DNA of 64,000 nt from Spirochaetia bacterium (GCA_017535435.1 JAFXTY010000060.1:654-64653); one strand, 5' to 3'. Positions 18,808 to 59,903 are shown, numbered from the stretch's first letter. The notes: a model not told the origin generated them from the sequence alone. Numbers and translations are program-made.

Positions 18808-18837
18808 TTGACAATTTACAATTTTTGTGGGTAAACT
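18808..18837 (+). promoter_or_regulatory. sigma70-like promoter for tRNA-Ser (TTGACA 18808-18813; TAAACT ~18832-18837)
   Basis: Consensus -35 with 17-18 nt spacer to a TAnnnT -10, ~12 nt upstream of tRNA 5' end. Confidence 0.5.
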
Positions 18838-18849
18838 GTACGAGCCTTT

Positions 18850-18939
<90 letters not shown>

Positions 18940-19008
18940 CAGCCAGGCACTGTGCAATTGAGCTCCGCCCAACCCCGTCAGGATCGGAAGGTAGCAGCGG
19001 TAAGCGGT

Positions 19009-19045
19009 AGCCAATGTGATGCAGTCTGCTTGGCTGTTTTTTTTT
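19009..19045 (+). terminator. rho-independent terminator (AGCCAA…TTGGCT stem + T9)
   Basis: 6-bp stem with 15-nt loop followed by nine T residues, ~75 nt downstream of tRNA-Ser. Confidence 0.55.
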
Positions 19046-19055
19046 GGGAGGTTTT

Positions 19056-20759: not shown

Positions 20760-20760
20760 G

Positions 20761-44559: not shown

Positions 44560-45789
44560 ATGAGCTCAACACTTGAAACATACTTTGCAGATGTGGACAA
44601 GGCAATAGTCCGCATGAAGAGCTATCCCTCGAAGGAGATAGTCCTGCTGCATCATAACGACACCGACGGTCTTACATCGGGCTCTGTTTTATACAAGGCA
44701 TTCTGTGACGAAGGTTACAAAGTGCAGCGTTTCTCCCTGGAAAAGCCTTATCCTAAGGTGCTGGAGAAGCTGTTTGCAGAAAACTCCGGAAAGCTGATTG
44801 TGTTTGCAGACTTCGCGGGGAAGATCGCACCTCTTATCTGCAAGCTGAACGGCGACCGGAACTTGGTGATCCTTCTGGACCACCACAAGGCGGAGAAGTC
44901 TGTATCCGATTCTGTCATCAATCTTGACCCGGATCTCTACGGCCTTAAGGGGGACCGGGATATATCGGCATCGGTGACCTGCTGGTACTTTGCATGCCAC
45001 CTGAATCCGGCCAACAAGAAGATGGCCCACATTGCTGCCCTTGGCGGTATCGCCGATTTCTTCTACCTGGACTGGCAGGTTCACGGCGAGAACTGGAAGT
45101 GCGTGGAGGAGGCTGTTAAGCAGGGAACCATGCGCATCGAGAAGAAGGATGGCAAGGATGTCTTCTACATCACACTCCCGGACAGAGAGTTTGAGATAAT
45201 CGAGCTTTACACTCTGATGGATATCATCGGCGGGGTAGGCTTCTACGGCGGCGGTCCTGAGCTGGGAATAAAGATGCTGCTCCATGGCACAGATGCGGCA
45301 GACCAGAAGACTATAGAGAAGTTCTGCAGCATGAAGAAGGAGAAGTTCGACCAGGAATTTGACCGGATAAGGAAAGGGGAGTTCCAGGAGACAGAGCACA
45401 TTGTGTGGTTCGACGTGAAGGACCGGTTCAAGCCTATGGGTGTTAAGATGATCGGCCTTCTCTGCGAGGCTCTTACCGACAGCGGTCTGGTTCCGGTGGA
45501 CAAGTATCTGGCCGGTTATCAGCAGATTCCGGACGAGGTTCCTGGATTCGGCGAGGTGGATATGGGAGAGACCAAGGTTTCCATGAGGACATCATTGCCT
45601 CTTACCGACCGGGTGCTTAAAGCAGAACTTCCGGGCCTCAATGAGTTCCTGCCTGAGGCAACACTGAACCTGGGCGGCTTTGCAGATGCATGCCATAGAG
45701 TGGCGGCTGCAACCACAATTAAAATTGGAAAGGAATCACAGCTTATGGATGAATGCGAGAACGTTCTGAAAAAGCTTATGAATAAATAA
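44560..45789 (+). CDS. DHH-family phosphoesterase (NrnA/RecJ-like)
   Basis: 409 aa; HHNDTDGLTSGSVLY (motif I/II) and LLDHHK (DHH motif); C-terminal DHHA1-like region. Confidence 0.75.
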   Translation: MSSTLETYFADVDKAIVRMKSYPSKEIVLLHHNDTDGLTSGSVLYKAFCDEGYKVQRFSLEKPYPKVLEKLFAENSGKLIVFADFAGKIAPLICKLNGDRNLVILLDHHKAEKSVSDSVINLDPDLYGLKGDRDISASVTCWYFACHLNPANKKMAHIAALGGIADFFYLDWQVHGENWKCVEEAVKQGTMRIEKKDGKDVFYITLPDREFEIIELYTLMDIIGGVGFYGGGPELGIKMLLHGTDAADQKTIEKFCSMKKEKFDQEFDRIRKGEFQETEHIVWFDVKDRFKPMGVKMIGLLCEALTDSGLVPVDKYLAGYQQIPDEVPGFGEVDMGETKVSMRTSLPLTDRVLKAELPGLNEFLPEATLNLGGFADACHRVAAATTIKIGKESQLMDECENVLKKLMNK

Positions 45790-45813
45790 AACGTTAGTAA
45801 ACGGAGGATAAAA

Positions 45814-46785
45814 ATGGGTATTGGATATGCATATGGAAAAAACATTCTGATCGGCGACCAGTTTGTACTTAACGGCGTACCAGCAATTGTTTCAGCTCTT
45901 CCTTTCAGGACAGAGACAAAAGTAGAGCGTCTGCCTGCGGGATCAGACCTTATCATCGAGGACCACAGAACCGAGGTTCCAGGATATATTCAGAAAAAGG
46001 CAGCTAAATGCCGTCTTTCATATGAAAGAATGATTGAGAAGATGGGTCTCGACATCAAGAAGAACCCGATGAAGATCACAGTAGGCGGCGACCTTCTGGC
46101 AGGAAGCGGTGTAGGAGCCAGCGCAGCAATAAGCGTATCCTTCGGCCGTGCATGCAACGACGAGTTCAAGCTTGGTCTGGACCTGGTGGAGCAGAACTGG
46201 GTAGGATTCCAGGGCGAGTTCCCATATCACGGAGAGCCGAGCGGTGTTGACAACACAGCATCTTCCTTCGGCGGAATCATGATGTATCAGATCCGGGACG
46301 GCAAGAAGATGTACGAGCGGATCAAACCGCCGAAGCCACTCTATGTAGTACTGGCAAACAGTGGCGTGACCTACGACACAGCTCTGATGGATGCCGAGAT
46401 TGAGGCCCTTATCAAGAAAGATGCCGGCTTCTTCTATAAGAGACTTAACAAGACAGCAGAACAGGTATATGCCCTCAAGGCAGCCCTGACAGCTGGCGAC
46501 TACGACGCAGTAGGCGAGATCATGACAGCAAACCATCAGCTTCTTATCGAGCTTAACATGAGCCATCCACGGCTTATCGAGCTCTGCGAGCGCTCCATCA
46601 AGATGGGTGCTTACGGCGCAAAGCTCACCGGCGGCGGAAGAGGCGGCTACATGGTTGCTCTGGTCAAGGACCTGGATATGCAGGCTAAGATCGCAGGCAC
46701 CTTCGAGAAGGAAGGAGTTCCTGTCATCACTGCAGAACTTGGTCTTAACCCAGTTGACGATGTTGACTTTAGAATATTAAAATAA
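45814..46785 (+). CDS. GHMP-family kinase, mevalonate kinase-like
   Basis: 323 aa; N-term GKNILIGDQFVLNGVPAI (MVK-like), ATP motif GGDLLAGSGVGASAAISV, C-terminal KLTGGGRGGYMVAL. Confidence 0.6.
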   Translation: MGIGYAYGKNILIGDQFVLNGVPAIVSALPFRTETKVERLPAGSDLIIEDHRTEVPGYIQKKAAKCRLSYERMIEKMGLDIKKNPMKITVGGDLLAGSGVGASAAISVSFGRACNDEFKLGLDLVEQNWVGFQGEFPYHGEPSGVDNTASSFGGIMMYQIRDGKKMYERIKPPKPLYVVLANSGVTYDTALMDAEIEALIKKDAGFFYKRLNKTAEQVYALKAALTAGDYDAVGEIMTANHQLLIELNMSHPRLIELCERSIKMGAYGAKLTGGGRGGYMVALVKDLDMQAKIAGTFEKEGVPVITAELGLNPVDDVDFRILK

Positions 46786-46789
46786 ACGC

Positions 46790-47533
46790 ATGAAAATTTT
46801 ATTATCAGGCTACGGCCAGATGGGAAAGGAAATCGAGAAGATTCTCCTTTCCCGTGGTCATATTGTGTCTGCCATTGTAGACCCGATGGTTGAGACCGCT
46901 CACAAGGAGATATCAGCTGCTGTACTGGCTGATGCAGATGTAGTAATCGACTTCTCATCACCAGCAGCTGTGCTTAAAAACTGCACCGCCTACGCGCAGG
47001 GTTCCACACCTGTTGTTCTTGGAACTACCGGCTGGGGTGACAAGTATGACCAGATCAAGGCTATGATCGAGAAAGCAGGCATCGGCTTTGTATGGGGATC
47101 CAACTTCTCCATCGGCGCCCATATGCTGTTCAAGCTGGCAAGCTATGCCGCATTACTGGCAAACGCAGTGCCGGACTATGACATCATGGTTCACGAGATG
47201 CATCATAAGCTTAAGAAGGATTCACCCTCCGGCACCGCCATCACACTGGCAGAGAAGATTCTTGCCAACTGTGACCGGAAGACCAAGATCGTGACACAGT
47301 GCCTGGACCGGCGGATCGAGCCGGAAGAGCTTCACGTGTCATCCACAAGAGGTGGCAGCATTCCTGGAATCCATACTATGTATATGGATTCACCTGCCGA
47401 CACCATCGAGATAACCCATAATGCACGGAGCCGGGGAGGCTTTGCACTGGGTGCAGTCATGGCAGCAGAGTGGATCAAGGGCAAGAAAGGCTTCTACAGT
47501 GTAGAGGACTTTATAAAGGAAATTTTACCGTAA
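46790..47533 (+). CDS. dapB: 4-hydroxy-tetrahydrodipicolinate reductase
   Basis: 247 aa; N-terminal Rossmann MKILLSGYGQMGKEI, DapB C-terminal domain (…EMHHKLKKDSPSGTA…). Confidence 0.85.
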   Translation: MKILLSGYGQMGKEIEKILLSRGHIVSAIVDPMVETAHKEISAAVLADADVVIDFSSPAAVLKNCTAYAQGSTPVVLGTTGWGDKYDQIKAMIEKAGIGFVWGSNFSIGAHMLFKLASYAALLANAVPDYDIMVHEMHHKLKKDSPSGTAITLAEKILANCDRKTKIVTQCLDRRIEPEELHVSSTRGGSIPGIHTMYMDSPADTIEITHNARSRGGFALGAVMAAEWIKGKKGFYSVEDFIKEILP

Positions 47534-47548
47534 TATAGGAGAAAATAA

Positions 47549-48424
47549 ATGAAGTTTGAAGGAATTTATACCGCCCTTATCACACCATTCAATAAGGACG
47601 AGTCAATTGACTGGGGCGCACTCAAGGCCCTTGTAGATTTTCAGGTGGAATCCGGAGTTGCCGGAATTGCACCTATGGGCACCACAGGCGAGAGCCCTAC
47701 AATCATCCATGAGGATCACCTTAAGATTATCGAATTTGTAGCAAGACAGGCTGCAGGCCGCTGTCAGATTATCGCAGGTGCAGGCTCCAACAGCACATCT
47801 GAGGCAATCCATATGACCAAGATCGCAGCAAGCTTCGGAGTAGATGCCACACTGCAGGTTGCACCATACTACAACAAGCCCAGCATGGAGGGTTTCTACC
47901 GCCACTTCATGACAATTGCAGACGCAGCTGATATTCCAATGGTTGTATACAACATTCCTGGACGGACAGGAAAGAACATCGACAATGCCACAATGCTCCG
48001 CCTGGCACAGCATCCAAATATTCAGGCTGTAAAGGAAGCAAGCGGCGATGTGAACCAGATGATGAACCTGATTGCCGCAAAGCCAGACTCATTCACAGTG
48101 CTCTCCGGCGACGACAACCTGGGATTCCTCCTTATCGCCATGGGCGGAAAGGGAATTGTATCTGTAGCATCCAACCTCTATCCAAAGGAGATGAATGCTC
48201 TGTGCAACGCAGCACTGGCTGGCAAGCTTGAAGAAGCTAAGAAGCTCCACTACAAGATGCTTCCATTCTTCAGAGCAGAGTTTGCAGACACAAACCCAGT
48301 TCCTATCAAGTACGCTATGTACAAGGCCGGCATGATCCAGGAAGCTTACCGGCTCCCACTGTGCGAAACCTCTGCCGCTGTAAAGGCTCAGGTGGACGCC
48401 GCAATGGCCAAGCTGGCACAGTAA
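47549..48424 (+). CDS. dapA: 4-hydroxy-tetrahydrodipicolinate synthase
   Basis: 291 aa; TIM-barrel DapA/NAL family, GTTGE motif (PMGTTGESPT) and active-site Lys region (…LQVAPYYNKPS…). Confidence 0.9.
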   Translation: MKFEGIYTALITPFNKDESIDWGALKALVDFQVESGVAGIAPMGTTGESPTIIHEDHLKIIEFVARQAAGRCQIIAGAGSNSTSEAIHMTKIAASFGVDATLQVAPYYNKPSMEGFYRHFMTIADAADIPMVVYNIPGRTGKNIDNATMLRLAQHPNIQAVKEASGDVNQMMNLIAAKPDSFTVLSGDDNLGFLLIAMGGKGIVSVASNLYPKEMNALCNAALAGKLEEAKKLHYKMLPFFRAEFADTNPVPIKYAMYKAGMIQEAYRLPLCETSAAVKAQVDAAMAKLAQ

Positions 48425-48445
48425 TTATTTTATTAGCAAGTATTT

Positions 48446-48474
48446 AGCCCCGGGACAACCCCGGGGCTTTTTTA
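48446..48474 (+). terminator. rho-independent terminator (AGCCCCGGG-ACAA-CCCGGGGCT + T6)
   Basis: Perfect 9-bp GC-rich stem and T-run 22 nt after dapA stop; marks end of the core operon and start of accessory segment. Confidence 0.85.
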
Positions 48475-48557
48475 TGCTTGCGTTTTTAAACGGTACAAAT
48501 GCTTACCAGAAATGAAGCTGTTAGTTTCAACATAAATTCATTTTCAGGAGGTGTTTT

Positions 48558-49226
48558 GTGCAAAACATCAATTTTTTACCATGGATTGGCAAAAATTATC
48601 AGACAGGCCTCGGTCCAAAAGGTCTTCGGGTGCTGGTTTTAGGCGAAAGTCACTATTGTTTCACCCTTGGACAGGGAAAATGTCCAGGATGTTCACTTAA
48701 GAATTGTATTGCCGCAGGTTTTACAAAGGAAGATTTCGAGCAGCAGACAATAGAGTACATCAAGGATATCCTCTATAACAACAAAGGATTGCCTTATCAA
48801 CAGACAGCATTAAGCTTTGAGAGGGCAATCGTGGGCAAGAAGAAACTGACTCAGGCAGAGCGGGAGGATTTTTGGAACAGTGTTATCTTCTATAATTATA
48901 TTCAGAAGTCGCTTCCAAAGCTTGATGGAAAAAGGACAGAGTTCACAGTAAATGACTTGGTTGGTTCAGATTCTGCATTTGATTTCATACTTGGTACATA
49001 TTTGCCTGATCTCATCATTGTCTGGGGGTTCAGGCTGTTCAAAATTTTGCCTCCCTGGGGTTCTGTCCGGTCAGAGCTGGAGCTACCATCGGGAGAAAAG
49101 ACGGATATCAGGATGTATTATGTCTGTGGGAAAAGCATTCCAGCCATAAAGGTGGCTCATCCAAGCTGTCCAAAGGGTCGTCAGTGGGAGTACTGGCATC
49201 AGTTCTACGATGTATTTTTGAATTGA
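48558..49226 (+). CDS. hypothetical Cys-containing protein (first gene of accessory segment)
   Basis: 222 aa; GTG start 6 nt after AGGAGG; Cys cluster CFTLGQGKCPGCSLKNC plus HPSCPKG; no family recognised. Confidence 0.5.
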   Translation: MQNINFLPWIGKNYQTGLGPKGLRVLVLGESHYCFTLGQGKCPGCSLKNCIAAGFTKEDFEQQTIEYIKDILYNNKGLPYQQTALSFERAIVGKKKLTQAEREDFWNSVIFYNYIQKSLPKLDGKRTEFTVNDLVGSDSAFDFILGTYLPDLIIVWGFRLFKILPPWGSVRSELELPSGEKTDIRMYYVCGKSIPAIKVAHPSCPKGRQWEYWHQFYDVFLN

Positions 49227-49245
49227 GATTCTGAAGTCTGCTTAC

Positions 49246-49306
49246 ATATCGGCAATATATAAATGGTATATAAAGTAAAAATACCACTTTATATTTTGCC
49301 GATATT
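49246..49306. promoter_or_regulatory. inverted repeat ATATCGGCAA(49246-55)/TTGCCGATAT(49297-306) flanking an AT-rich hairpin upstream of the Fic gene; candidate operator/promoter region
   Basis: 10-bp perfect reverse-complementary arms ~40 nt apart; TATATA-like -10 candidates between and after them. Confidence 0.35.
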
Positions 49307-49322
49307 GTGTTATTATATAGAC

Positions 49323-50192
49323 ATGGGAAAAGTAGATTATCTGCAGGTCGCCGATATAGCCAAAGCATGGGAAGTCTCAGACCGCAGTGTGCGGAACTAC
49401 TGTTGCCATGGGCGGGTCCCTGGGGCCATCATTGCCGGCAAGACTTGGCAGATACCTGCAGATACCCCTAAACCAAAGCGGCAGATTCGTCATTGCAGGA
49501 AAAAAGAGGAGACTGTTCTGGAGCAGCTTAAGAGGGAAAAGGATTCTGGGTTTAAGGGAGGGATGTACCATCGTATACAGATTGATTTTACTTATAACTC
49601 TAATCATATAGAGGGCTCCCGCCTGACTCCGGAGCAGACCCGCTATATCTTTGAGACCAACACCATCGGGATAACCGATAAAAGCGTCAATGTAAATGAT
49701 ATCATAGAGACAGTGAACCACTTTCGATGTGTAGATCTGGCTATCGAAGGGGCCAAGTCAAAGCTGACCGAAAGTTTTATCAAGCAGCTTCATTTTATAC
49801 TTAAGAACGGAACCTCCGATTCCCGGAAAAGCTGGTTCAAGGTTGGCGAATACAAGCTGCTGGAGAACGAGGTAGGTGGCATGGAGACAGCGGCCCCCGA
49901 AGATGTGAAGCCCCGGATGAAGGAACTCCTTGCCTGGTACAATGCAAAGAAGGTTGTGACCTTGGATGATATTCTTGATTTTCATGTACGGTTTGAGCGT
50001 ATCCATCCGTTCCAGGATGGAAACGGCAGGGTGGGGCGGCTGATTATGTTCAAGGAGTGTTTAAAAAACAACCTAAAACCGATTATAATAACCGAACAGC
50101 TCAAGTGGTTCTACTACCGCGGTCTCAAGGAGTGGTTCCATGAGCGTGGTTTTCTACGTGAGACTTGTCTGGAGGCAATGGAGGGGGTATAA
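49323..50192 (+). CDS. Fic-family protein (AMPylase-type) with N-terminal excisionase-type HTH, class II auto-inhibited
   Basis: Canonical Fic motif HPFQDGNGRVGR; upstream inhibitory-helix motif SNHIEG ([ST]xxxE[GN]) in same polypeptide; N-term MGKVDYLQVADIAKAWEVSDRSVRNYC HTH. Track ORF starts 60 nt earlier (49263) inside the promoter-like AT-rich region. Confidence 0.85.
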   Translation: MGKVDYLQVADIAKAWEVSDRSVRNYCCHGRVPGAIIAGKTWQIPADTPKPKRQIRHCRKKEETVLEQLKREKDSGFKGGMYHRIQIDFTYNSNHIEGSRLTPEQTRYIFETNTIGITDKSVNVNDIIETVNHFRCVDLAIEGAKSKLTESFIKQLHFILKNGTSDSRKSWFKVGEYKLLENEVGGMETAAPEDVKPRMKELLAWYNAKKVVTLDDILDFHVRFERIHPFQDGNGRVGRLIMFKECLKNNLKPIIITEQLKWFYYRGLKEWFHERGFLRETCLEAMEGV

Positions 50193-50201
50193 TTTATAGG
50201 T

Positions 50202-51815
50202 ATGAGTGATAAAATAATTATAAAAAAAGAAGATGAAGGGATACAAAGACTTGAAGTTAGTAACGAAGTTGTTGATAGGCTTAATAATATTTTTCGACGT
50301 GTAATTTGGAGAGACCCTGAAGGAAAAAACGAAGGTTATTTTGACATAAATAAAGATATATCTTTTCATAAAGATCTCTGTGATAAAATATTAGAGAAGA
50401 AAGTATCTGATTATAGTATTGTTGAGATTTTTTATTCTAAGAAAAAAGATGATTCGAAATATGAATACTTATTGCCACCTGAAAAAGAGTTTAAACAGAT
50501 TGATATTAATGAATTTAATACTTTTAAAAGCGAGCCTAAATATACTGAAGGTGGTTATTACTATCTCTTTAATAAATGTTTTATTGAAAAGAATTTTGTA
50601 AAGAATCTCGGAATACCGACAAATAAAGAAGATGGTTTCTTCCCATTATGGAAAGAGTATGAGCAATTTGAAAAGAAAGAATGGATTTGTCAATATCTCT
50701 ATAGGCAGGCACGTTTTAACTGGTATAATAGCGGAAATATAAATTTTTATTATAAACCTGCACAGCCATGGGTAGAATTTTATCATTTTTGCCAATTTTG
50801 CTATACATTAGTTAGAGCCGGGCTTGAAGTGAAAAAAGACAATAAAGGAAAACAGCTGAAAGAGTATAAAAACGATGGATATAAATATCTTATAGATAGA
50901 TATCTTGGGGAAAATATAAAAAAAATTAATAAAATTAAAAAAATAATATCAGATACAAAGGGAAAAACAAGTAAAAAGCAGGATTCATCTTTAGAAAAAC
51001 TAGAAAAAGAGTATTCTTATATAATGGGAAATATCGAATATGGAATAGAAGATGATTCAAAACCATTTCATATAAAAAGCCTTAAAGAAACAATTTTACA
51101 AATAAATTTCCATAAAGTCCATAATAGTTATCAAAAGTATAATTTTTTTAGTTTTGATTCTAATGATTGTGAATCTATTAAAAATATATATAAGAAATTA
51201 AATGACAAAGATTCTGAAGGTGATTACAATATTAGTTTAAAAAATTATTCTCAAATGTTTGATTATATTTTAAAGCATATATCACAATTGTCTAAAGAAG
51301 ACAAGGATACTATAACCTATATTTTTAAAAAAAAGAACTTTAAAAAAAATCCGGAATGCTATGATAAAGATACTGAGACAGAAGGCAATGATAAAGATAC
51401 TGAAGAATCTGAGAATAATGCTTCCCCAGAAAAACATATAATAAGTGGATCAGAAGGTGCTGATGAAATAATGTACAAGAAAGCCCAAGAAGAGAAAATA
51501 ATTAAGATTACTATAAAGATTTTTTGCAAACAATTCCCTTTCGATGAAAGATTTGTTCATTGGTTGAATGGATTGAATAGTTATGAGGAACTTGAATCCT
51601 TTCTTGTTGCGTTTATTCAGCTTAGTAAAAAGGGTAAAGTAAAGGAAGATCTTGCTGAGAAGAAAGTTAAGAATATGCTAATTGATAAATACAATGAAAT
51701 GGAAAATCTAAAAGAATACAGTGATGAAATAATCTCTCTTTTTGAGGAAAGGGTTAAGAAAGTTAAGGATTTGATTAAGAGGAAGTATAATGGAAAAAAT
51801 GACCTTTCTGAATGA
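50202..51815 (+). CDS. hypothetical protein, AT-rich cassette gene 1 (Lys/Asp/Glu-rich)
   Basis: 537 aa uninterrupted ORF in ~1/3-GC DNA; 9 nt after Fic stop; contains internal tandem DKDTE(T/E)EG repeat; no NTPase/nuclease motif found by eye. Confidence 0.55.
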   Translation: MSDKIIIKKEDEGIQRLEVSNEVVDRLNNIFRRVIWRDPEGKNEGYFDINKDISFHKDLCDKILEKKVSDYSIVEIFYSKKKDDSKYEYLLPPEKEFKQIDINEFNTFKSEPKYTEGGYYYLFNKCFIEKNFVKNLGIPTNKEDGFFPLWKEYEQFEKKEWICQYLYRQARFNWYNSGNINFYYKPAQPWVEFYHFCQFCYTLVRAGLEVKKDNKGKQLKEYKNDGYKYLIDRYLGENIKKINKIKKIISDTKGKTSKKQDSSLEKLEKEYSYIMGNIEYGIEDDSKPFHIKSLKETILQINFHKVHNSYQKYNFFSFDSNDCESIKNIYKKLNDKDSEGDYNISLKNYSQMFDYILKHISQLSKEDKDTITYIFKKKNFKKNPECYDKDTETEGNDKDTEESENNASPEKHIISGSEGADEIMYKKAQEEKIIKITIKIFCKQFPFDERFVHWLNGLNSYEELESFLVAFIQLSKKGKVKEDLAEKKVKNMLIDKYNEMENLKEYSDEIISLFEERVKKVKDLIKRKYNGKNDLSE

Positions 51816-52530
51816 GCTTATGAATGCTAATGGTATCTCTATTGCAGATATTTCAAGGTGTCATAATTGCAAGTTTTTTAAAAATTTAAAATACAATGAA
51901 ATATTTAAATGTAATATAAACAATGATAATTCTTTGGCAGTAACTGTTGCTGAGTTATTATATCCAGAAAAAGTGAAGTATATAAAGAATTATTTATTTA
52001 AAGATTCTAAAAATTGGCGAAAAGATTTGGTAAATTATGGCAAACAGTACAAAAAAATAATTATTACTGCAATGTTATTTGATACAGATTTCTATGTATA
52101 TGCCAGTAACTGGTGCTATCTTATGAGATTAGCCGCAGATCAGTATTATGCCAGACATAAAGAAAAAAAATTCTATGTGCTTGACCGGCCCGCTGAGGGG
52201 TATGGTGCAAAGATTTTTGATATTGGAGAGCCAATGGTGCTGGAGGGCACCGGAGTTCTGACTGTGGCTGGCAGATATATTCATGAAGATAATGAAGGGG
52301 ATCCCAGTAAAAAGATAATGAAGACTACCTTTAATTTTGAGTTTGGAAAGGAAGTATTGGAAGGGAAAGACGTTAGAATAACTATAGAGTGTGATGATAA
52401 TGTTAATAAGACTAGAGAAATAGTAATTGATTCCAGGTCTCTACAGGATGGAAAGAATAAAGTTCATAAAACTGTCGACCTAGATTTTGAGAATGGTTTT
52501 GATATTTCTGTAAAAAAAAATATCCTCTAG
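51790..52530 (+). CDS. hypothetical protein, AT-rich cassette gene 2
   Basis: 246 aa; overlaps gene 1 by 26 nt (translational coupling); Cys pair CHNCKFF…C; no family recognised. Confidence 0.5.
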   Translation: MEKMTFLNELMNANGISIADISRCHNCKFFKNLKYNEIFKCNINNDNSLAVTVAELLYPEKVKYIKNYLFKDSKNWRKDLVNYGKQYKKIIITAMLFDTDFYVYASNWCYLMRLAADQYYARHKEKKFYVLDRPAEGYGAKIFDIGEPMVLEGTGVLTVAGRYIHEDNEGDPSKKIMKTTFNFEFGKEVLEGKDVRITIECDDNVNKTREIVIDSRSLQDGKNKVHKTVDLDFENGFDISVKKNIL

Positions 52531-52576
52531 AGAAATTTCTTTCCCCATAAAATCATTATATGGGTAGGAGGAAAAA

Positions 52577-54553
52577 ATGGAAATACTGATTCCAATTGTA
52601 GAAAAAACTGTAGAAGGAAAAACTGAAGTATCATTTCATAGCATAACTAATGTTTACCAGAGAGAGCTTGCCCGAGGTGGAGTAATCGCTGTCAACGAAT
52701 TTGATGAGGAAACAAAGTTTGATGAAGAAACGAAAGGAATATTTGGACAAGATTTGAACCCCTGTCAGGTCATGGTCGAGCCAAGACCCGCTACAGGCAA
52801 GGAAATATCTGCCAATGACATTGTGCTCTTACCAGCAATACCGCTTGGGATATTGCTGGCAATTGAAAAGATGATTAATTATAGATTCTTCAAAGAATAC
52901 TATGACATACTGATTGTTGCAGGCTATGTCGAGAATGGCATATTGAAAGCCATCAATGATAGTCAGCATATTTATGAAGAAGCAAGTAATAATAAGTATG
53001 TTGCACGTTTAATCTCAAATAAGAAGCGAGTTCAATTCCTATATGTGGCCAATGATGATATCGAGATTGTGACAAACAATAATGAAACTCACTGCTGGGA
53101 TGGTACTTATCCTATTTCTGTTTTTCGATTTGCCCCTGATATTCCATATGCCAATATTCTTGAAGAACTATTCACAGTCGTAGGTAATAAAATTGTATAT
53201 TATCCGAATTGGGTTGAGAACGATGGTCTGCCATGGGGACGGAAAGAAAACGATTTTTCAAGAGAAGATATAAAGTATAGAGATGCTTCATATATGTTCA
53301 CATATAAAGATGATGAACTTAAGAGTGTTAGAAAAATTAACAGTGCTGGATTGCCCTATGCCTATTCAGGTCCAATAGATAATCCTGTGTTTCAAGAGTT
53401 TTATTACCATGATTCTGATAAATCTGATAAACCAAATATAACAGTTCTCTACAAGACAAAATCTGGGAATACTGTATATAGAAAAGAGATTAAGAGAGAG
53501 AGTAATAATTCTTATAAGGTGACCTTCTATAACTGCTTGGATGCAGGTCCTTTCTTCTTTAACAGTGATTTTATGGAATATAAGCCTGAAACAATTGACA
53601 GTGTTTGCTCTTTGCCAGATGCATTCATAGGAAAAGAGTGGCTAGTAGAATGTAATCAGCATGGCTTCGTGACTAGCAAGCTTGCTACAAGAAGTAATAA
53701 TGAAATATATGGTATGGAATATTCCTATGATGAAGACGATAAAGCAGGCAACATTTGTAAGGAATATTTTCTTGGTCAAGATGGCAAGCCAATTACTGTC
53801 AATGGGATTGTTGGATATGAAATGCAGTATGACAATAATAATAATATGACAGAGCGGAAGGCATTGGATGCAGAATATAAAAATCTGAATAGAGCTAAAT
53901 TTGAATATGATGAGAACAACAGACAGGTTCGCTGCGAGCTTTATGATAGTCAAGGTAAGTGTCATGTGGTAAAGACAAACTGGAAAAACTTTCCCCGGAC
54001 AATAGAGACAGATTATGGTCATAGCATCTTAAGAAGAAAGTATGATTGGCTTGGATACTGTGTATCCCTGGCAGTTCTTGACGACAAGAATAAACCGACT
54101 TGTGGTAGAGTAGGTAATGCTCTATGCTCAGAGATTCGAAGAGTGTTTAATGAGGGAACTCTGCCAATTGAAATCTCATACCGAGATGAAGAACAAGAGC
54201 TTGCTTGTCGGGATGATGGAGTAGCTGTCATAAAGACCAAGTATGATCCTGATAAAAATATAGCAAAAGAGACTTATCATGGAATATATGGAAATGCAAC
54301 AGAAGATGAACGTGGAATTGCTCAGATAAAGCAATATTATGAATATTATAAAGATGGAAAAATTGGAAGGTTTATATTATTATATAGATTGTCAGAGCTT
54401 GATGATTTATATAAAGATGAAATCCAATTGGGTGAGATTAAGGATGGATTAGCTTGGTTTATGTCAAATCCTGTGAAAGTTCCCAATTTGGCCATAGATA
54501 TAAATGCATATCTTTATAACTTACCCCAAATACCGTTGCCTCTCCATTTTTAA
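52577..54553 (+). CDS. hypothetical large protein, AT-rich cassette gene 3
   Basis: 658 aa; AGGAGG RBS; Asn/Tyr/Asp-rich, no Walker A or known catalytic signature seen. Confidence 0.55.
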   Translation: MEILIPIVEKTVEGKTEVSFHSITNVYQRELARGGVIAVNEFDEETKFDEETKGIFGQDLNPCQVMVEPRPATGKEISANDIVLLPAIPLGILLAIEKMINYRFFKEYYDILIVAGYVENGILKAINDSQHIYEEASNNKYVARLISNKKRVQFLYVANDDIEIVTNNNETHCWDGTYPISVFRFAPDIPYANILEELFTVVGNKIVYYPNWVENDGLPWGRKENDFSREDIKYRDASYMFTYKDDELKSVRKINSAGLPYAYSGPIDNPVFQEFYYHDSDKSDKPNITVLYKTKSGNTVYRKEIKRESNNSYKVTFYNCLDAGPFFFNSDFMEYKPETIDSVCSLPDAFIGKEWLVECNQHGFVTSKLATRSNNEIYGMEYSYDEDDKAGNICKEYFLGQDGKPITVNGIVGYEMQYDNNNNMTERKALDAEYKNLNRAKFEYDENNRQVRCELYDSQGKCHVVKTNWKNFPRTIETDYGHSILRRKYDWLGYCVSLAVLDDKNKPTCGRVGNALCSEIRRVFNEGTLPIEISYRDEEQELACRDDGVAVIKTKYDPDKNIAKETYHGIYGNATEDERGIAQIKQYYEYYKDGKIGRFILLYRLSELDDLYKDEIQLGEIKDGLAWFMSNPVKVPNLAIDINAYLYNLPQIPLPLHF

Positions 54554-54555
54554 TC

Positions 54556-54598
54556 TGAGCGGGACTGAGTAATCAGCCTCGCTTTTTTTATTTTTTTT
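54556..54598 (+). terminator. probable terminator (imperfect hairpin + T7ATTTTTTTT)
   Basis: AGCGG…CC(T)CGCT stem with internal CTGA/TCAG hairpin followed by long T-run immediately after cassette gene 3. Confidence 0.45.
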
Positions 54599-54701
54599 CT
54601 AAAATTTTAATTTTTGTTACCCCAAATATCTATATGAACTATTGAGAGGGCAAAATGGCGTGTTTCGCCATCCCCTCATACATATTAAGTGGAGGAAAAC
54701 T

Positions 54702-55550
54702 ATGAAGAAAGCTTTCATTGCTGTGGACGGTATCTTTGGATTTGACCTGTTCCAGCATGGTAAGGAGCAGTACCACAAGGTACTTGATTTCGGTGGACTC
54801 ATTCAGGATGTCTGCCAGCGTCTGGGGACAAAAGGTGACTGCCAGGTCTTGGTTCCAAAGGTCTTAAGGCGGTGCTACATAGGGGCAACAACTAAGTGCT
54901 GGAATCCAGTCAGGAGAGAGTACGAGACTGCGCTGAGAAATGCCAAGTTCGTAATGCCCGGCAGGCCGCTTTGCAGCAACGGCAAGGAAAAGGGGATAGA
55001 CACTTTGCTCTTCTCTGAAGTCATAGAGGCTGCTCGGTATGACTATTTTGATTACCTAGTGCTACTGACTGGAGATCTGGATCACATCACACTGGTTCAA
55101 GATCTCAAAGAGATGGGGAAGGAAACCATACTGCTCACAGGGAAGGTATGTGGCGAGGATGGTTTGGAGAAGACTGGTTACTCAAAGGAACTTGAGAACA
55201 ACTGTATGGAAACAATAGATATATTTAGCCTTATTGGCGAACCTAAGGTATTTAAAGATGTCCCTGCCATTCCTGCTGTCGCAGCAGATAAGAAGCAGAT
55301 TCCGCAGGTCGTACAGGCAATTGTGGAAATAATGGCAGAGAAATCAAAGGAGGTGGGGAAAACAGCGGTCTTTGCCTACCAGGATATGGTTGAGGCACGA
55401 TTAGTCCAAAACGGCACACAGCTGGGTATGCCACTAGGCGAGTATCTGGTTTCCTTCCCGACAATTTTCAAGGTTGGGTGTGTCTGGTTCTCCCAGAGGA
55501 AGACAGTGTCACTTATTAACACCACTAATACTCTTAAGGAGGTAATATGA
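54702..55550 (+). CDS. NYN (LabA-like, PIN-fold) nuclease domain protein with C-terminal OST-HTH/LOTUS-like domain
   Basis: Start at MKKAF after GGAGGA (track ORF begins 54642). NYN motifs FIAVDG, GKEKGIDTLLFSEVIE, DYLVLLTGDLDHITLVQDLKEMGKETILL; C-terminal ~90 aa helical LOTUS-like segment. Confidence 0.65.
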   Translation: MKKAFIAVDGIFGFDLFQHGKEQYHKVLDFGGLIQDVCQRLGTKGDCQVLVPKVLRRCYIGATTKCWNPVRREYETALRNAKFVMPGRPLCSNGKEKGIDTLLFSEVIEAARYDYFDYLVLLTGDLDHITLVQDLKEMGKETILLTGKVCGEDGLEKTGYSKELENNCMETIDIFSLIGEPKVFKDVPAIPAVAADKKQIPQVVQAIVEIMAEKSKEVGKTAVFAYQDMVEARLVQNGTQLGMPLGEYLVSFPTIFKVGCVWFSQRKTVSLINTTNTLKEVI

Positions 55551-55614
55551 TCACTTTAGCAATCATAGCGTTTATTATCTCAAAACTGTGAGAAGCGAAG
55601 GAAAAATAATAATA

Positions 55615-55803
55615 ATGACTTTTGAAGAAATTAAGAAGCAGATTGAAATAGGCAATCTTGAGTGGAAAGAACTGCTTACTATGAGGGCTTTATTCCCAAA
55701 GTATCGGCAGGATTTAAGACACGAAGTAATTAAGAGGAACATCCCCTGGTGGATGCCATGTAAGGATTGGATTGCGAAAAGAATTGAGAAAAAGATCAAC
55801 TAA
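55615..55803 (+). CDS. small hypothetical protein (62 aa from MTFEEIKK…)
   Basis: Short ORF between NYN and DUF1232 genes; Trp/Lys-rich; weak RBS; could be non-coding. Confidence 0.3.
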   Translation: MTFEEIKKQIEIGNLEWKELLTMRALFPKYRQDLRHEVIKRNIPWWMPCKDWIAKRIEKKIN

Positions 55804-55813
55804 GGAGTAAAAA

Positions 55814-56215
55814 ATGAAATATAACTATGACGACAAAGACCTCAGCAGAGAGTTTGAGGCAAGAAAATCAACTTCTACAAAAGATGTGGATAATGTGCTG
55901 AAGAACGAGGAGAAAATCAAGAGGATGGCGAAGAAGGGAGCGCTGGCCAAGTTCTTTGGAGACATCGTACTGTTTTTCCAGCTGCTGGGTGATTATACCA
56001 GAGGAAGATACCGGAAGGTTCCTTTGCGGACGATTGCCGCTATTGTAGGCGCATTGGCCTATGTCTTGAGCCCTATAGACATTATCCCAGACTTATTTCC
56101 GGTAATCGGTTATGTAGACGATGCCGGAGTGATGGCCCTCTGCCTGAAGCTTGTTCAGTCAGATATCGACCATTATCGTACATGGAGAGAGGGTAACAAC
56201 AAGAAAGCTGCGTAA
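55814..56215 (+). CDS. DUF1232 (YkvA-like) membrane protein
   Basis: 133 aa; signature …PIDIIPDLFPVIGYVDDAGV… typical of DUF1232. Confidence 0.65.
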   Translation: MKYNYDDKDLSREFEARKSTSTKDVDNVLKNEEKIKRMAKKGALAKFFGDIVLFFQLLGDYTRGRYRKVPLRTIAAIVGALAYVLSPIDIIPDLFPVIGYVDDAGVMALCLKLVQSDIDHYRTWREGNNKKAA

Positions 56216-56374
56216 TTATCAATGGGGCGCCCTGCTTTTTTTGCAGGGCGATATTTAGAGTCCAACATTGAACCCCCAGAAAATCATATAAAAAGTAGAG
56301 AAGATTAAAAGGGCAGCCTGACAAGGGCAATTTTGAATTGAATAGAGCGCCATAGGGCTACCAAAGGAGGACAG

Positions 56375-57364
56375 ATGAAAAAGAGAAAATTAGTTAGGGG
56401 ATTAGTCGAATTTGTACTGGTCATGGCATTCTTGTTCACAGTTGTTATCTGCATTGGGGACAGGATAAGATTGTCTGGCCACAAGGAGCCGGTGTTCGAA
56501 AACGCAAAAGTGGTACCCGAAGCGAACTATAATTTGAATGCGGAGACACAAATGGCTATGGCTACTGCAAAGGAAGTTGCATATCAGTATGCTTGCGACG
56601 AGTTGGACAAATGGATAGCAGAGATAATGAAAGAGACAGACCGTTTCGCTAATGAATATTTTGAATATGGAGCAGAGAACAGCCGGGGGCTTTCAGCAGT
56701 CTACCATGATGTAATGCATAAGTTGATTAGTTCGCATAAGACAGCAAACGAAGCATTGATGGAAGACTTGGAGCAGCAGATTTCATGTCATCTTTTTAAC
56801 AAAGAGGCAGCACAGGCAAGAATTACAAACATAACAAACGAAACTGTAGCGGTCTACATGAAGACTTTTGGCCGGGAATTAGCCAAGATTCAGGAGAAGC
56901 ACAGTATACCTCAGCCAGTGTGGGACAAGCATATTTACCATCTCTGCTCCATAACCGCAGGCTTTGACTCAAGAAGTGTTCCTATGACAACTAAAGTTGT
57001 TGTCTCAACAGCAGCCGGTATTACTCTTAAGGTTGCAACTCCACTTGTTGCCAGAGTTGGACAGCATGTAGGAGAGAAGTTTGCTGCCAAAGCAGGGACA
57101 AAATTTGTTGCTAAAAACTTTGGGAAGTGGATTCCCGGACTTGGAACGGTTATTGCAGCAACAGTAATAGGCTGGGATTTGATAGATTACAAGCTGACTG
57201 CAGAGAAGAACAAACGTGCTCTTAATGCAGGGTTTGATTTGTATTTTCAGGAGATGAAAACCGAACTTCTTGGACCGACTGACGACAGCATCATGGGGTC
57301 TATTACCCTGTTGGAAAACAACATTAAGTCTAAGCTTGCTTTAAGTAAGGAGGACACAATATGA
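56375..57364 (+). CDS. uncharacterised single-pass membrane protein, paralog A
   Basis: 329 aa; N-in TM (VEFVLVMAFLFTVVICIG), long helical domain, C-terminal Gly/Ala-rich hydrophobic segment (…GLGTVIAATVIGWDLIDY…) and conserved tail QEMKTELLGPTDDSIMGSI. Confidence 0.6.
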   Translation: MKKRKLVRGLVEFVLVMAFLFTVVICIGDRIRLSGHKEPVFENAKVVPEANYNLNAETQMAMATAKEVAYQYACDELDKWIAEIMKETDRFANEYFEYGAENSRGLSAVYHDVMHKLISSHKTANEALMEDLEQQISCHLFNKEAAQARITNITNETVAVYMKTFGRELAKIQEKHSIPQPVWDKHIYHLCSITAGFDSRSVPMTTKVVVSTAAGITLKVATPLVARVGQHVGEKFAAKAGTKFVAKNFGKWIPGLGTVIAATVIGWDLIDYKLTAEKNKRALNAGFDLYFQEMKTELLGPTDDSIMGSITLLENNIKSKLALSKEDTI

Positions 57365-58344
57365 AAAATTATATCAGGATTATATGCTATCTGATTGCTG
57401 CTGTATTTGTTATAACAGTTGTTACCATATTTGGCTATTCCAACTCTTCAGAGCCGGAGGCCCCGCATTTTGAAAGCAGACAGATAGAAGAGAAGGAGTT
57501 TGTCTTTGACCACAGGATAGACATGGAAATACTTGATTCCTTGGACTTGGCTGAACAGAAGGCCAAAGAATATGCAGCCGGACGGCTTGATCGTTGGATT
57601 TCTGGGTTGATGGTGCGTACTGACAGTTTCCTTGACGAATATTTTAACCTGCTCAATGTCAAAAAGAGAGAGGTATCTGCAGCATGGCATACCGTCAGTC
57701 ATAAAATCAGCAAGAGTTCACCTTCGGCAGAAGATGTCATTATGGATGACCTGATGGCAAGATTTGAAGAGAAGGTTCTTAACCGGAATGATGCACAGCG
57801 GATGCTGGAGGATATAGGTAACAACGCTATAATGGTTTTTATTGACTTATTTGAACATGGCCTTGATTTGATTAAGGAAAAGTATAGTGTACCTGAACAG
57901 GACTGGACGAAACATATTTCCAGTTTGTGTGGCTATGCGGCAGACTTTGAGGCACGGCGGGTATCTATTATAGCCAAGATCTCAATAGCGAGCTCAGCTG
58001 TACTTGGAACGGAAGTTGCCTATAGAATTGTGTCCTCCGTTGTTAGTAAGCTTGGAAAGAATCTTGCAATTAAAGCTGGAACAAAGGCAGCCGGTTCAAC
58101 AGGAGCAAAGGCCGTAAGCAGTGCTGTCCCGATTGTTGGTTTTGCTATCACAGCAGCTGTAATAGGCTGGGATATCTATGACTCTATCACCACTTCAGAA
58201 CGGAATAAACGGGATATGCGAGCTGGAGTTGAACAATATTTCCAAGAAATGAAGGCATATCTTCTTGGCCCAGCCCAGGACAGCATCATAGGCTCTATTG
58301 TTTTATGGGAAAAAGAAGTACGGAACAGGATTCAGACACGATAA
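57361..58344 (+). CDS. uncharacterised single-pass membrane protein, paralog B
   Basis: 327 aa; ATGA overlap with paralog A; alignable along its length (…AVIGWDIYD…, QEMKAYLLGPAQDSIIGSI; KYSVPEQDWTKHISSLCGYAADFEARRV vs KHSIPQPVWDKHIYHLCSITAGFDSRSV). Confidence 0.6.
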   Translation: MKNYIRIICYLIAAVFVITVVTIFGYSNSSEPEAPHFESRQIEEKEFVFDHRIDMEILDSLDLAEQKAKEYAAGRLDRWISGLMVRTDSFLDEYFNLLNVKKREVSAAWHTVSHKISKSSPSAEDVIMDDLMARFEEKVLNRNDAQRMLEDIGNNAIMVFIDLFEHGLDLIKEKYSVPEQDWTKHISSLCGYAADFEARRVSIIAKISIASSAVLGTEVAYRIVSSVVSKLGKNLAIKAGTKAAGSTGAKAVSSAVPIVGFAITAAVIGWDIYDSITTSERNKRDMRAGVEQYFQEMKAYLLGPAQDSIIGSIVLWEKEVRNRIQTR

Positions 58345-58355
58345 GGAGGAAAGGA

Positions 58356-58589
58356 ATGACATTAAACTATTTTATGAACTTGCTTGAGGACCATGGATGG
58401 GATGTTGAGAGTGACCCTCTTTGTTTTACTAATGGAAATGCCGAGATTCACATTGGGTTTAATGAGTATGACGAAGAATATATTGAAGATGGTGCTCTTC
58501 TTTGTCATGTCACATGGATCAAGTTTACAAGGCGAAGTATGACAATTTTTTGGGATGATGGCGATAGTTGGAGATATAACTATTGGTGA
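58356..58589 (+). CDS. small acidic Trp-rich hypothetical protein (77 aa)
   Basis: Start MTLNYFMN… 6 nt after GGAGGAAAGGA; 12 nt downstream of paralog B; acidic, aromatic-rich. Confidence 0.4.
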   Translation: MTLNYFMNLLEDHGWDVESDPLCFTNGNAEIHIGFNEYDEEYIEDGALLCHVTWIKFTRRSMTIFWDDGDSWRYNYW

Positions 58590-58701
58590 AAGAAAAATAG
58601 GGTATTTTAAGCCCTATAAGAGGGGGATAGAATTATTGAGGGCGACGTCCAAACCTGCAGGGGAGTTGCCATATTTGAACCATAGAGAACCTCCTTACTT
58701 T

Positions 58702-58735
58702 GGGGGACCGAGCAATCGGTCTCCCCTTTTTATTT
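58702..58735 (+). terminator. rho-independent terminator (GGGGGACCGA-GCAA-TCGGTCTCCCC + T-run)
   Basis: GC-rich stem with one bulge, followed by TTTTTATTTT; separates membrane-pair operon from patatin-LRAT unit. Confidence 0.6.
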
Positions 58736-58799
58736 TCAGAGTTGGGTGGAATAATCTTCGTGAATACTGTAATCTCTTATATGGGAGAAAGCTAATACT

Positions 58800-59879
58800 A
58801 TGTTTTTCAAGCGTAAGATAGGGTTAGTTCTGGCAGGGGGCGGCGGCAAAGGAGCGTACGAGCTCGGTGTCTGGAAGTACCTGTCAGAGATAGGCCTTAT
58901 CAAGAAAATATCTGTTATCTCAGGCTCTTCGGTAGGGGCGCTGAACGCCATCCTGCTGAACCTATGTGATTTTGATACTGCTGTAGACATATGGACTACC
59001 CAGCTTGAGAGCAATATCCTTGACTTCAAATCCACCACAAAGCGGTCCGGGGCTATCTTCAGCAGGGAAGGGCTCTATCGGATTATGGAGCAGCTGGATT
59101 TCAGCAAGCTGCCTGCACTTAAGAAAAAGATATATGCAACCTGCCTCAATACTGATACTAAAAAACCTGAGAGCTTCTGTCTGAACAATTATGACGAAGA
59201 GACTGTGAAGCAGCTCCTGTGTGCCACCAGCGCCATTCCCCTTGTGTTCCAGGGTGAGAAGATTTTCGGAAACAACTATATTGACGGTGGTTGGGGAGAT
59301 GAGGTCCCTATCCAGCCTCTGCTGGATGAGGGGTGCACCGATGCAATCGTGGTGAACCTTAAGCGTAGTTATCATGTGGATTATTCCGGCCTTGGGATCA
59401 ATACAGTTGTGATTCATCCAACTGTCAACCTGGGGGACAACTGGTTTGGTATTCTTGACTTCTCTGCCAAAGGGGCACACAGACGGATGAAGCTGGGCTA
59501 TGATGACTGCAGAAGAAGGTTTGCACCACTCCTTAAGACATTGCGGGGACACTTGAGCTTCAGCCTCAGCGGTGTCCGGGCCAAGAAGATAAATGCCATG
59601 ACTGACGAGGAAATCCTTCAGAGGACCTTGGAGGTGATATCTGCCCATCCTGAGCATCTTAATGAAATACAGGGGTATTTCAACATCGATTTCCTGACGG
59701 CCGGTGGCGAGGTGTTCTGGAAAGAGCTGGCAGAATATCATGGCTGGCGGTTCCAGGAGAACAATATCACCAGACATATAAGACTGATTGATCCCACCAA
59801 TTTCCGCCGGGCCTGGGGCAGGAGACGGCAGCTGGTGGATTACTGCCGCTCTTTTTTAATTGGACAGTTGGCGAAATAG
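58800..59879 (+). CDS. cytoplasmic patatin-like phospholipase
   Basis: 359 aa, no signal peptide; oxyanion LVLAGGGGKGAYELGV, nucleophile GSSVGALNA (GxSxG), catalytic IDGGWGDEV (DGG). Confidence 0.85.
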   Translation: MFFKRKIGLVLAGGGGKGAYELGVWKYLSEIGLIKKISVISGSSVGALNAILLNLCDFDTAVDIWTTQLESNILDFKSTTKRSGAIFSREGLYRIMEQLDFSKLPALKKKIYATCLNTDTKKPESFCLNNYDEETVKQLLCATSAIPLVFQGEKIFGNNYIDGGWGDEVPIQPLLDEGCTDAIVVNLKRSYHVDYSGLGINTVVIHPTVNLGDNWFGILDFSAKGAHRRMKLGYDDCRRRFAPLLKTLRGHLSFSLSGVRAKKINAMTDEEILQRTLEVISAHPEHLNEIQGYFNIDFLTAGGEVFWKELAEYHGWRFQENNITRHIRLIDPTNFRRAWGRRRQLVDYCRSFLIGQLAK

Positions 59880-59903
59880 CCTTTCCGGAGGTATATTTAT
59901 AAT

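Follow-up and report, generated by a model that had tools for sequence, protein, structure and literature searches.

The question raised by this locus is what role three long, AT-rich open reading frames (ORFs), here called g1, g2 and g3, play immediately downstream of a gene encoding a helix-turn-helix (HTH)-Fic protein in a Spirochaetia bacterium. The window, that is, the whole stretch of 64,000 nucleotides that we analysed (GCA_017535435.1 JAFXTY010000060.1:654-64653), had been given a first-pass annotation, which singled out the three ORFs as a cassette of orphan proteins and as a candidate abortive-infection or defence module. From context and architecture, our tentative answer is that the region is a conflict-type operon, with defence against phages or mobile elements as its most probable role. 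This reading was reached because the genes are under selection, lie in a divergence hotspot, include a g3 whose relatives carry a telling repertoire of heads, recur in linkage elsewhere and are found in defence-gene contexts.

Three AT-rich genes and their divergence between sister lineages

The cassette comprises the following elements.

50202..51815, plus strand: g1, ORF of 537 amino acids (aa), product soluble and Lys/Glu-rich
51790..52530, plus strand: g2, ORF of 246 aa, coupled to g1 by overlap
52566..52571, plus strand: AGGAGG ribosome-binding site (RBS) of g3, read from the sequence, 5 nt 5' of the ATG
52577..54553, plus strand: g3, ORF of 658 aa

Coordinates and lengths were as first annotated, including the AGGAGG motif and the 26 nt (51790-51815) common to g1 and g2, and the g2 ATG was found to have a GAGG-type RBS 6 nt upstream. 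The drop in G+C reported at the cassette boundaries was also confirmed. G+C fell from 0.49 at 49800-50199 to 0.26 at 50200-50599, in a single 200-nt step at 50,200, stayed at 0.22-0.39 throughout the cassette and was back to 0.47 at 54600. Most of the drop came from third codon positions, whose G+C content (GC3) was 0.21, 0.30 and 0.30 in g1, g2 and g3, respectively, as compared with 0.55-0.65 in the housekeeping flanks; the overall G+C of g1 was 0.27. The claim that g1, g2 and g3 are foreign in composition thus held. GC3 was host-like in the upstream Fic gene (0.56) and in the gene for an NYN-domain protein downstream. Neither direct or inverted repeats, nor an integrase or a tRNA, were present at the two composition boundaries, and no Rfam element was found at the locus.

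The cassette proteins have a low-complexity, Lys/Asn-rich composition, g1 above all. In g1, a 27-nt near-perfect tandem duplication (51354-51403, 91% identity) falls in an acidic low-complexity stretch and encodes ...YDKDTE / ...NDKDTE. A possibility was that such features betray a non-functional AT-rich insert or decaying pseudogenes. At the composition of the cassette, the chance of a stop is 0.089 per codon, and the probability of an open frame of the observed length was P = 2e-22 for g1, 1e-10 for g2 and 2e-27 for g3; the longest open run over 2000 shuffles was 200 codons, as against 661 observed. The same ORFs were intact in a second lineage (lineage B), at synonymous divergence (dS) values of 0.5-1.5 and with ratios of nonsynonymous to synonymous divergence (dN/dS) of 0.51, 0.23 and 0.34 for g1, g2 and g3, and an RBS and a terminator were conserved. 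Since the ORFs are intact in two lineages, show dN/dS <1 and run free of stops far past chance, g1, g2 and g3 are real genes, as had been argued from their length, and the pseudogene reading is effectively refuted.

In lineage B, the sister lineage, the cassette is found at the equivalent site with its gene order unchanged. The window g1 is annotated in a Spirochaetia metagenome-assembled genome, and identical copies were recovered in several gut/rumen metagenome assemblies. Proteins of the flanks were highly similar between the two lineages, with identities of 93-99.7% for DHH, GHMP, DapB, DHDPS, DUF1232 and the downstream paralogs, and of ~89% for patatin and LRAT. Within the divergent zone, identities were 30-35% for g1, 52-54% for g2 and 71% for g3, and 70%, 84% and 79% for the neighbouring p222 (a 222-aa protein), Fic and NYN proteins, respectively. 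The g1 DNA showed no alignment whatever between lineages. With 30% versus 99% identity between sister lineages, this is a clear natural case of a locus-specific divergence hotspot. The dN/dS of NYN was 0.21, and most flanking genes lay at 0.005-0.11, LRAT reaching 0.23. Because all values were below 1, g1, g2 and g3 are under selection, yet they are far less constrained, or partly diversifying.

Synonymous divergence was itself uneven. dS was 1.2-2.3 over p222 to g2, as compared with 0.05-1.0 in the flanks, a pattern suggestive of old alleles or of recombination that has replaced alleles. Over 44560-60368, compared with the lineage B contig L002, dS swung ~40-fold among adjacent genes (0.05 for a 327-aa gene, 0.9-1.0 for DHH and patatin, 2.3 for p222); this variation indicates, as far as sequence comparison goes, that the chromosome is a recombination mosaic. 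Within each lineage the cassette had zero polymorphisms, and the locus is therefore not phase-variable. As a separate observation, several independent metagenome assemblies break within or just past g3 (~54240-54700), at the change from AT-rich to normal G+C; the ends of L008 and L010 and the starts of L025 and L026 lie there, and coverage or strain heterogeneity may be the cause.

The first-pass annotation had seen no catalytic signature by eye and had taken the three proteins for orphans. In agreement with the former point, g1, g2 and g3 had no match in Pfam, NCBIfam, PADLOC or PHROGs, and PDB sequences yielded nothing but a weak DUF3836 match for g3. A word-indexed search of 5.8 billion proteins returned the cassette proteins only in the two lineages; two scans of species-representative genomes and two of JGI metagenomes found none of them, scans of IMG/VR with the g3 and g2 profiles were empty, and tblastn with g3 found nothing in collections of phages and plasmids. 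Orphan status, by these searches, is true of g1 alone, a lineage-restricted protein whose sister-lineage ortholog was the sole relative outside its own lineage and in which no transmembrane (TM) segment was found. A distant homolog of g2 was identified, namely a 257-aa protein encoded on the contig L011 (blastp 2e-17 to the lineage B g2, 7e-8 to g2). We also considered an HTH at the N-terminus of g2, which found no support, the match to the Trp repressor being sub-threshold (E 0.055). As for g3, it turned out to belong to a YD-repeat family of 392 representatives with a recognisable fold.

A YD-repeat core with interchangeable heads

An exhaustive HMMER search with the g3 profile retrieved 392 cluster representatives at E <=1e-3, 67 of them at E <=1e-10. 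What defines the family is an anchor module, with the motif YYxxWVExxGLPxG...SYxF...INSxGxP: a local hidden Markov model (HMM) of g3 residues about 200-290 matched once, and only once, in 135 of 149 relatives, at positions between residues 25 and 859. The anchor is followed by repeats whose consensus is YDxxGNxxExxYFGxDGKPxLxxxG. In relatives they reach Pfam RHS_repeat (PF05593), DUF2963 and NCBIfam YD_repeat_2x (TIGR01643); g3 itself reaches none of these. Alignments of g3 to P0005, P0044, P0029, P0091 and P0086 were collinear, giving a shared layout, which in g3 is as follows.

52577..53188, plus strand: g3 head (residues 1-204), alpha/beta domain with a predicted Lon/RadA-protease-like fold
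53189..53446, plus strand: g3 anchor module (residues about 205-290), family-defining entry to the repeat array, pLDDT 70-87
53447..54385, plus strand: g3 YD/Rhs-type beta-hairpin repeat sheet (residues about 291-603), predicted structure
54386..54553, plus strand: g3 C-terminal tail (residues about 604-658), pLDDT <50 and no predicted fold, 93-97% identity between lineages

The structure of g3 was modelled with AlphaFold2 (AF2) from a 20-row alignment of full-length g3-type relatives and of members trimmed to the anchor start; a two-sequence alignment had given a predicted local distance difference test score (pLDDT) of 33.5. The model had a pLDDT of 65 overall, 70-93 over residues 205-590 and 50-80 over head residues 84-200. 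Its closest solved structures were type VI secretion system (T6SS) Rhs effectors and BC components of Tc toxins; teneurin shells matched as well, and small hairpin proteins of the DUF3836 type were further structural neighbours; a BFVD structure search with g3 found generic MORN-like hairpin proteins only. These matches raised the possibility that g3 is a secreted Rhs-type polymorphic toxin accompanied by accessory or immunity genes. The similarity is local, with TM-scores of ~0.2 against Rhs chains of 964-1414 residues, and the g3 array, anchor included (residues about 205-603), spans ~380 residues where Rhs chains span ~1,000. Neither g3 nor the lineage B g3 contains a DPxG[LWM] motif, so that the DPxG[LW] autoprotease site of Rhs toxins is lacking, as is a C-terminal toxin domain (the C-terminal 69 aa had no Pfam match). 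No signal peptide or TM helix was detected in g3, in which residues 82-100, forming an internal helix, are the sole hydrophobic stretch, and no PAAR, VgrG or other secretion genes were listed in the neighbourhood. We thus hold a secreted Rhs toxin to be very improbable. The YD array of g3 is probably an open sheet, judging from its length.

The Lon/RadA-like fold of the g3 head is predicted with moderate confidence. With the catalytic columns assigned by eye, the column of the candidate catalytic Ser in the head alignment holds Ala in the window g3 and Ser in the other four sequences, and that of the candidate Lys holds His in the window g3, Arg in the next and Lys in the others. The Lon-like domain of RadA is non-catalytic and ring-forming. 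Since the candidate Ser is replaced by Ala and the candidate Lys by His, a non-catalytic role of the window g3 head is suggested, RadA-like, such as oligomerisation. At the sequence level, a link to Lon was examined and rejected, given that neither Pfam nor PDB sequences nor hhalign supported it (probability 0.1% for the g3 head against an approximate sequence of the E. coli Lon domain).

The family is held together by the YD core, and its heads vary. Pfam identified a TIR head (TIR_2/ThsB_TIR) in 9/9 tested members of a 51-member cluster; in a mixed cluster of 66 members, it identified Ser/Thr kinase heads in 4, a caspase head (Peptidase_C14) in 1 and an nSTAND1 NTPase head in 1. A TM-like helix lies just ahead of the anchor in 54/66 members of the mixed cluster and in at least 24/51 of the TIR cluster. 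TIR is found only in relatives with the same YD core, g3 itself having no Pfam match to it; nor did g3 match MORN_2 (PF07661), which is present in one distant relative, P0043. The g3-type head was confined to g3, its ortholog, P0005, P0044 and a 786-aa protein that neighbours P0044 on contig L013, and, the 786-aa paralogue excepted, proteins with this head lack a TM helix ahead of the anchor. The usual TIR-type and kinase-type members are encoded by stand-alone genes. Only in the soluble branch are the genes arranged as a cassette.

Several proteins of this search deserve mention in their own right. P0006-P0153, for example P0050 (L029 6001-8412) and P0008 (L030 6001-9930), are membrane proteins of a large family that is apparently undescribed, with a cytoplasmic TIR, kinase, caspase or nSTAND1 head, a TM helix, the anchor and a YD array predicted to lie outside the cell. 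Akkermansia MBR1979625.1 belongs to it and is annotated merely as a 'TIR domain-containing protein'. For the heads of two soluble members, P0029 and P0091, we dropped a HEPN identity proposed from an RNxxxH motif seen by eye, Pfam giving no support.

This membrane topology bears on an alternative in which g3 would be a cytoplasmic offshoot of membrane receptors for ligands from the environment or the host, with g1 and g2 as lineage-specific partners and Fic as a regulatory AMPylase, the whole serving signalling or scaffolding outside immunity. It would account for the TM helix before the anchor in most relatives (54/66; at least 24/51), for the kinase-type P0008, which stands alone in an ordinary neighbourhood, and for a cassette that is fixed at one site with no empty site found. 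Housekeeping signalling, however, would not typically show such extreme divergence between lineages and raised dN/dS, nor would it be expected to maintain a foreign GC3 in two hosts. Furthermore, TIR, caspase and STAND heads are typical of immune proteins, and four of the four soluble-subfamily loci lie in defence-rich neighbourhoods (see below). We consider signalling of this kind unlikely, and defence is the reading that we carry forward.

The operon and its counterparts in other genomes

Around the three genes, the following features were identified.

48446..48468, plus strand: intrinsic terminator after DHDPS, 9-bp stem (8 of the pairs GC) and T-run, 5' boundary of the unit
48558..49226, plus strand: p222, ORF of 222 aa, opens the unit and is placed identically in both lineages
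49263..50192 (start may be 49320), plus strand: HTH-Fic, predicted AMP-transferase (PF02661, PADLOC PDC-S04)
54557..54598, plus strand: intrinsic terminator after g3, hairpin (-14.8 kcal/mol, z = -3.0) with a T-run behind it, closing the AT-rich unit
54702..55550, plus strand: NYN-domain protein, predicted PIN-like RNase (PF01936), with its own GGAGG RBS

The terminator after g3 is kept in lineage B at -17.1 kcal/mol, with compensatory changes in the stem. In the window, 9 nt separate the Fic stop codon from the g1 ATG, and Fic and g1 overlap by 8 nt in lineage B; the overlap of g1 and g2 is 26 nt in the window and 4 nt in lineage B. Because of the terminators at both ends and the tight Fic-g1 and g1-g2 junctions, p222-Fic-g1-g2-g3 is, as read from these sequence signals, a single co-transcribed unit, with NYN next door. 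The proposed cassette of three genes therefore stood as far as the conserved coupling of g1, g2 and g3 is concerned, and fell short in extent: the functional unit starts at p222 and Fic and has NYN as a conserved downstream partner.

The Fic gene immediately upstream, already noted in the first pass, matched PF02661 at 2.2e-18 (67.3 bits) and, weakly, HTH_17, and its product matched the PADLOC candidate PDC-S04 at 1e-102. Its translation carries the canonical HPFQDGNGRVGR, which fits HxFx(D/E)GNGRxxR, so that the HPFxDGNGR active-site motif is intact, and it is under strong purifying selection. p222 had zero matches in Pfam, PADLOC, NCBIfam, PHROGs and PDB, and between lineages it showed 70% identity, a dS of 2.3 and a dN/dS of 0.09, that is, purifying selection. 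The NYN protein matched PF01936 at 1.7e-6 (29.1 bits, the gathering cut-off being 24.2).

Further downstream, a 62-aa ORF (55615-55803) lies between NYN and DUF1232 in both lineages, with 65% identity and a dN/dS of 0.45, and forms the downstream edge of the divergent zone. The tandem paralogs of 329 and 327 aa (56375-58344), 3' of the DUF1232 gene and 5' of a 77-aa ORF and a patatin-like phospholipase, belong to no significant Pfam family and are 93-99% identical between lineages. A second small indel separates the lineages: two extra genes, DUF3990 and HTH_3/XRE, are present in lineage B between patatin and an LRAT/NlpC-like gene (L002 17430-18738) and missing in the window lineage (about 59880-59903).

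The first-pass annotation would have counted its reading as refuted if the genes were not conserved as a unit in any other genome, which is not the case. Besides being kept in the sister lineage, the order large protein-g2-g3-NYN recurs in a distant genome, on contig L011. There, the genes encode a JAB/E1 enzyme, a 587-aa protein, the 257-aa g2 homolog, a 114-aa protein, P0005 and an NYN protein. P0005 is 27% identical to g3 over 659 columns, and the NYN protein encoded directly 3' of it is 37% identical to that of the window (3e-61). The 587-aa protein matched g1 weakly (hhalign P 0.002, controls 0.3-0.5). GC3 was 0.18-0.25 in the three core genes of L011 and 0.37-0.42 in its flanks, and NYN follows the host composition in both genomes. 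An AT-rich core in two unrelated hosts implies that AT-richness is maintained and is not the mere trace of a recent transfer. The JAB/E1 gene lies directly 5' of the cassette, in the slot held by Fic in the window. Its product, a 716-aa 'ThiF' protein (L011 4885-7035), matches the JAB and E1-E2 PADLOC models and resembles a fusion of Cap3 and Cap2 of the cyclic-oligonucleotide-based anti-phage signalling system (CBASS).

These data bear on two alternatives that concern the place of Fic. One is that g1, g2 and g3, being AT-rich, were acquired independently and have no joint function, their link to Fic being accidental. Fic and NYN do have a host-like G+C that g1, g2 and g3 lack, and proteins at the g1 position elsewhere are not demonstrably homologous. 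Such chance juxtaposition would nevertheless have to explain why coupled frames are kept in two lineages despite 30-70% protein divergence and why the same order, with homologous g2, g3 and NYN, is present in a distant genome, and we find it highly unlikely. The other is a toxin-antitoxin or addiction module centred on Fic, in which one or more of g1, g2 and g3 would neutralise the toxin by binding, g3 acting like an immunity protein of the YwqK/MORN type, and co-evolution would drive the divergence. The intact Fic motif and its translational link to g1 would fit this view, as would the MORN_2 domain in P0043 and the structural nearness of DUF3836-type hairpin proteins to g3. Yet g2, g3 and NYN are linked in L011 without Fic, JAB/E1 taking its place. 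In addition, Fic is strongly purified and host-like in G+C and g1, g2 and g3 are not, a difference in selection and G+C that implies different histories. Finally, g3 itself has no MORN_2 match, and three large proteins far exceed what an antitoxin needs. We judge an addiction module improbable, and return to defence.

Other soluble members of the family were found near defence genes. On L013, the order is a 991-aa protein, a 234-aa protein, P0044 and the 786-aa paralogue, which has the same Lon-like head and a TM helix ahead of its anchor; two caspase-like (Peptidase_C14) proteins, one of them with WD40, and an FGE-sulfatase-domain protein follow, the stretch after P0044 being 13068-22098. Homology of the 991-aa and 234-aa proteins to g1 and g2 was absent or marginal. 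L019 carries a DolB/PDC-M37B-like ATPase, and NACHT is among the genes of the P0029/P0091 loci. Taken together, the neighbourhoods of the four loci with a soluble-subfamily member are all rich in defence genes. The counterparts of g1, g2 and g3 on L011 and L013 had no PADLOC 2.0 match.

Two unrelated contigs, L019 (5450-12925) and L020 (2690-12862), were seen to share one gene string: a TPR protein of ~695 aa, a CARF-adenosine deaminase (PADLOC CARF_ADA, 5e-142), a Nudix-like protein of 189/190 aa and the soluble YD-repeat protein P0029/P0091, whose head is helical. L020 has an extra 852-aa gene, a restriction-modification-like fusion. This string may be a separate candidate system. Its 189/190-aa genes had been candidates for g2 homologs and were rejected as such, being Nudix-like.

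Defence as the role of the operon, which the first-pass annotation had proposed, thus found relatives among defence genes; as regards function, it remains a reading of context and architecture, and PADLOC has no match for g1, g2 or g3. Several points weigh against it. The three proteins have no match in the databases listed above, and, the soluble subfamily being carried at no more than about four independent loci, the association with defence genes is qualitative, anecdotal rather than statistical, with four or five loci. Homology at the g1 position was not established across loci (hhalign P 0.002 for L011, none for L015), and that of g2 to the 234-aa protein of L013 is marginal. Most family members are membrane-anchored, with a YD array predicted to be extracellular, which fits environmental receptors as well as immune sensors. 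Sequence support for Lon was nil, the head profile having no match in Pfam or among PDB sequences, and loss of the catalytic dyad was read from the alignment by eye. Lastly, no genome with an empty site was found, and the cassette may be fixed in the lineage rather than accessory.

If the operon does act in defence, its parts could work together as follows. The YD sheet of g3 would be a binding or sensing platform, in keeping with relatives that wire such a sheet to TIR, kinase, caspase or STAND heads, and the Lon-fold head without its Ser would serve as an oligomerisation or switch module and not as a protease. As the most divergent gene, g1 would encode the target-specificity subunit and g2 an adaptor. 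Sensing would then release or activate an enzymatic effector, AMPylation by Fic and/or the NYN RNase, leading to cell arrest or to degradation of invader RNA. The strongest form of this proposal, which we regard as possible but doubtful, is that p222-Fic-g1-g2-g3 (with NYN) constitutes an unrecognised multi-gene anti-phage system that couples an open cytoplasmic YD sheet, as the sensor of invaders, to a dead Lon-fold ring switch, the YD anchor-and-repeat module being a new class of sensor. Hundreds of proteins that have yet to be described, each with a TIR, kinase, caspase or STAND head, a TM helix and a YD array, would share this sensor.

The locus exposes a large family in which a single YD core is paired with various heads (TIR, kinase, caspase, STAND or Lon-like), as well as a rare soluble branch that has dedicated partner genes and sits amid defence-rich neighbourhoods. 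To our knowledge, YD/Rhs repeats have been described in the shells of secreted toxins and in adhesion modules of eukaryotes, but not as a common sensor or scaffold of modular signalling or immune proteins. In the searchable literature, neither the cassette nor a family joining a YD core to TIR, kinase, caspase, STAND or Lon-like heads was described, and there was nothing relevant on YD repeats with TIR, kinase, Lon or defence. Were phage defence confirmed, the locus would offer a new sensor architecture and a tractable case in which an enzyme that modifies proteins (Fic or JAB/E1) is coupled to an immune module.

Comparison with known systems

By structure match, g3 shares the YD-type beta-hairpin sheet of Rhs/YD proteins (T6SS Rhs, TcB-TcC, teneurins). 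In contrast to these, its array is about a third of a cocoon-forming chain and comes without an N-terminal plug, a DPxGL autoprotease, an encapsulated toxin or a secretion signal; moreover, the variable domain of the g3 family is N-terminal and consists of a signalling or effector head. The g3 head differs from Lon (S16) and RadA/Sms in having no detectable sequence or profile similarity to them and no AAA+ attached. With Ala at the candidate Ser and His at the candidate Lys, the window g3 would resemble the RadA domain.

With CBASS, which uses Cap2 and Cap3 (E1-E2 and JAB), the likeness is to be found on L011, where the gene 5' of the cassette matches both models and occupies the slot of Fic. 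No CD-NTase or cyclic-nucleotide effector is present, and the window locus has neither an E1 nor a JAB gene. Fic and JAB/E1 would presumably have in common that both are ATP-using protein-modifying enzymes. As to PADLOC PDC-S04 and Fic/Doc, the operon's first gene for an enzyme encodes a Fic protein of the PDC-S04 type whose active-site motif is intact. The PADLOC model treats PDC-S04 as a candidate of one gene, whereas here Fic is translationally joined to three more genes and is replaced by JAB/E1 in L011.

Pairing a repeat sensor with exchangeable effector heads and with accessory genes in defence islands is a well-known design. Single-chain immune sensors with TIR, caspase or STAND domains, including the Thoeris ThsB-type TIR, are comparable to the g3 family at this level of layout. 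The module of the g3 family is a YD sheet and not TPR, WD40 or LRR, a TM helix usually lies between head and YD, and g3 itself has two dedicated partner genes in place of a TIR, caspase, STAND or kinase head; like those sensors, the family is built of one repeat module with heads that can be swapped.

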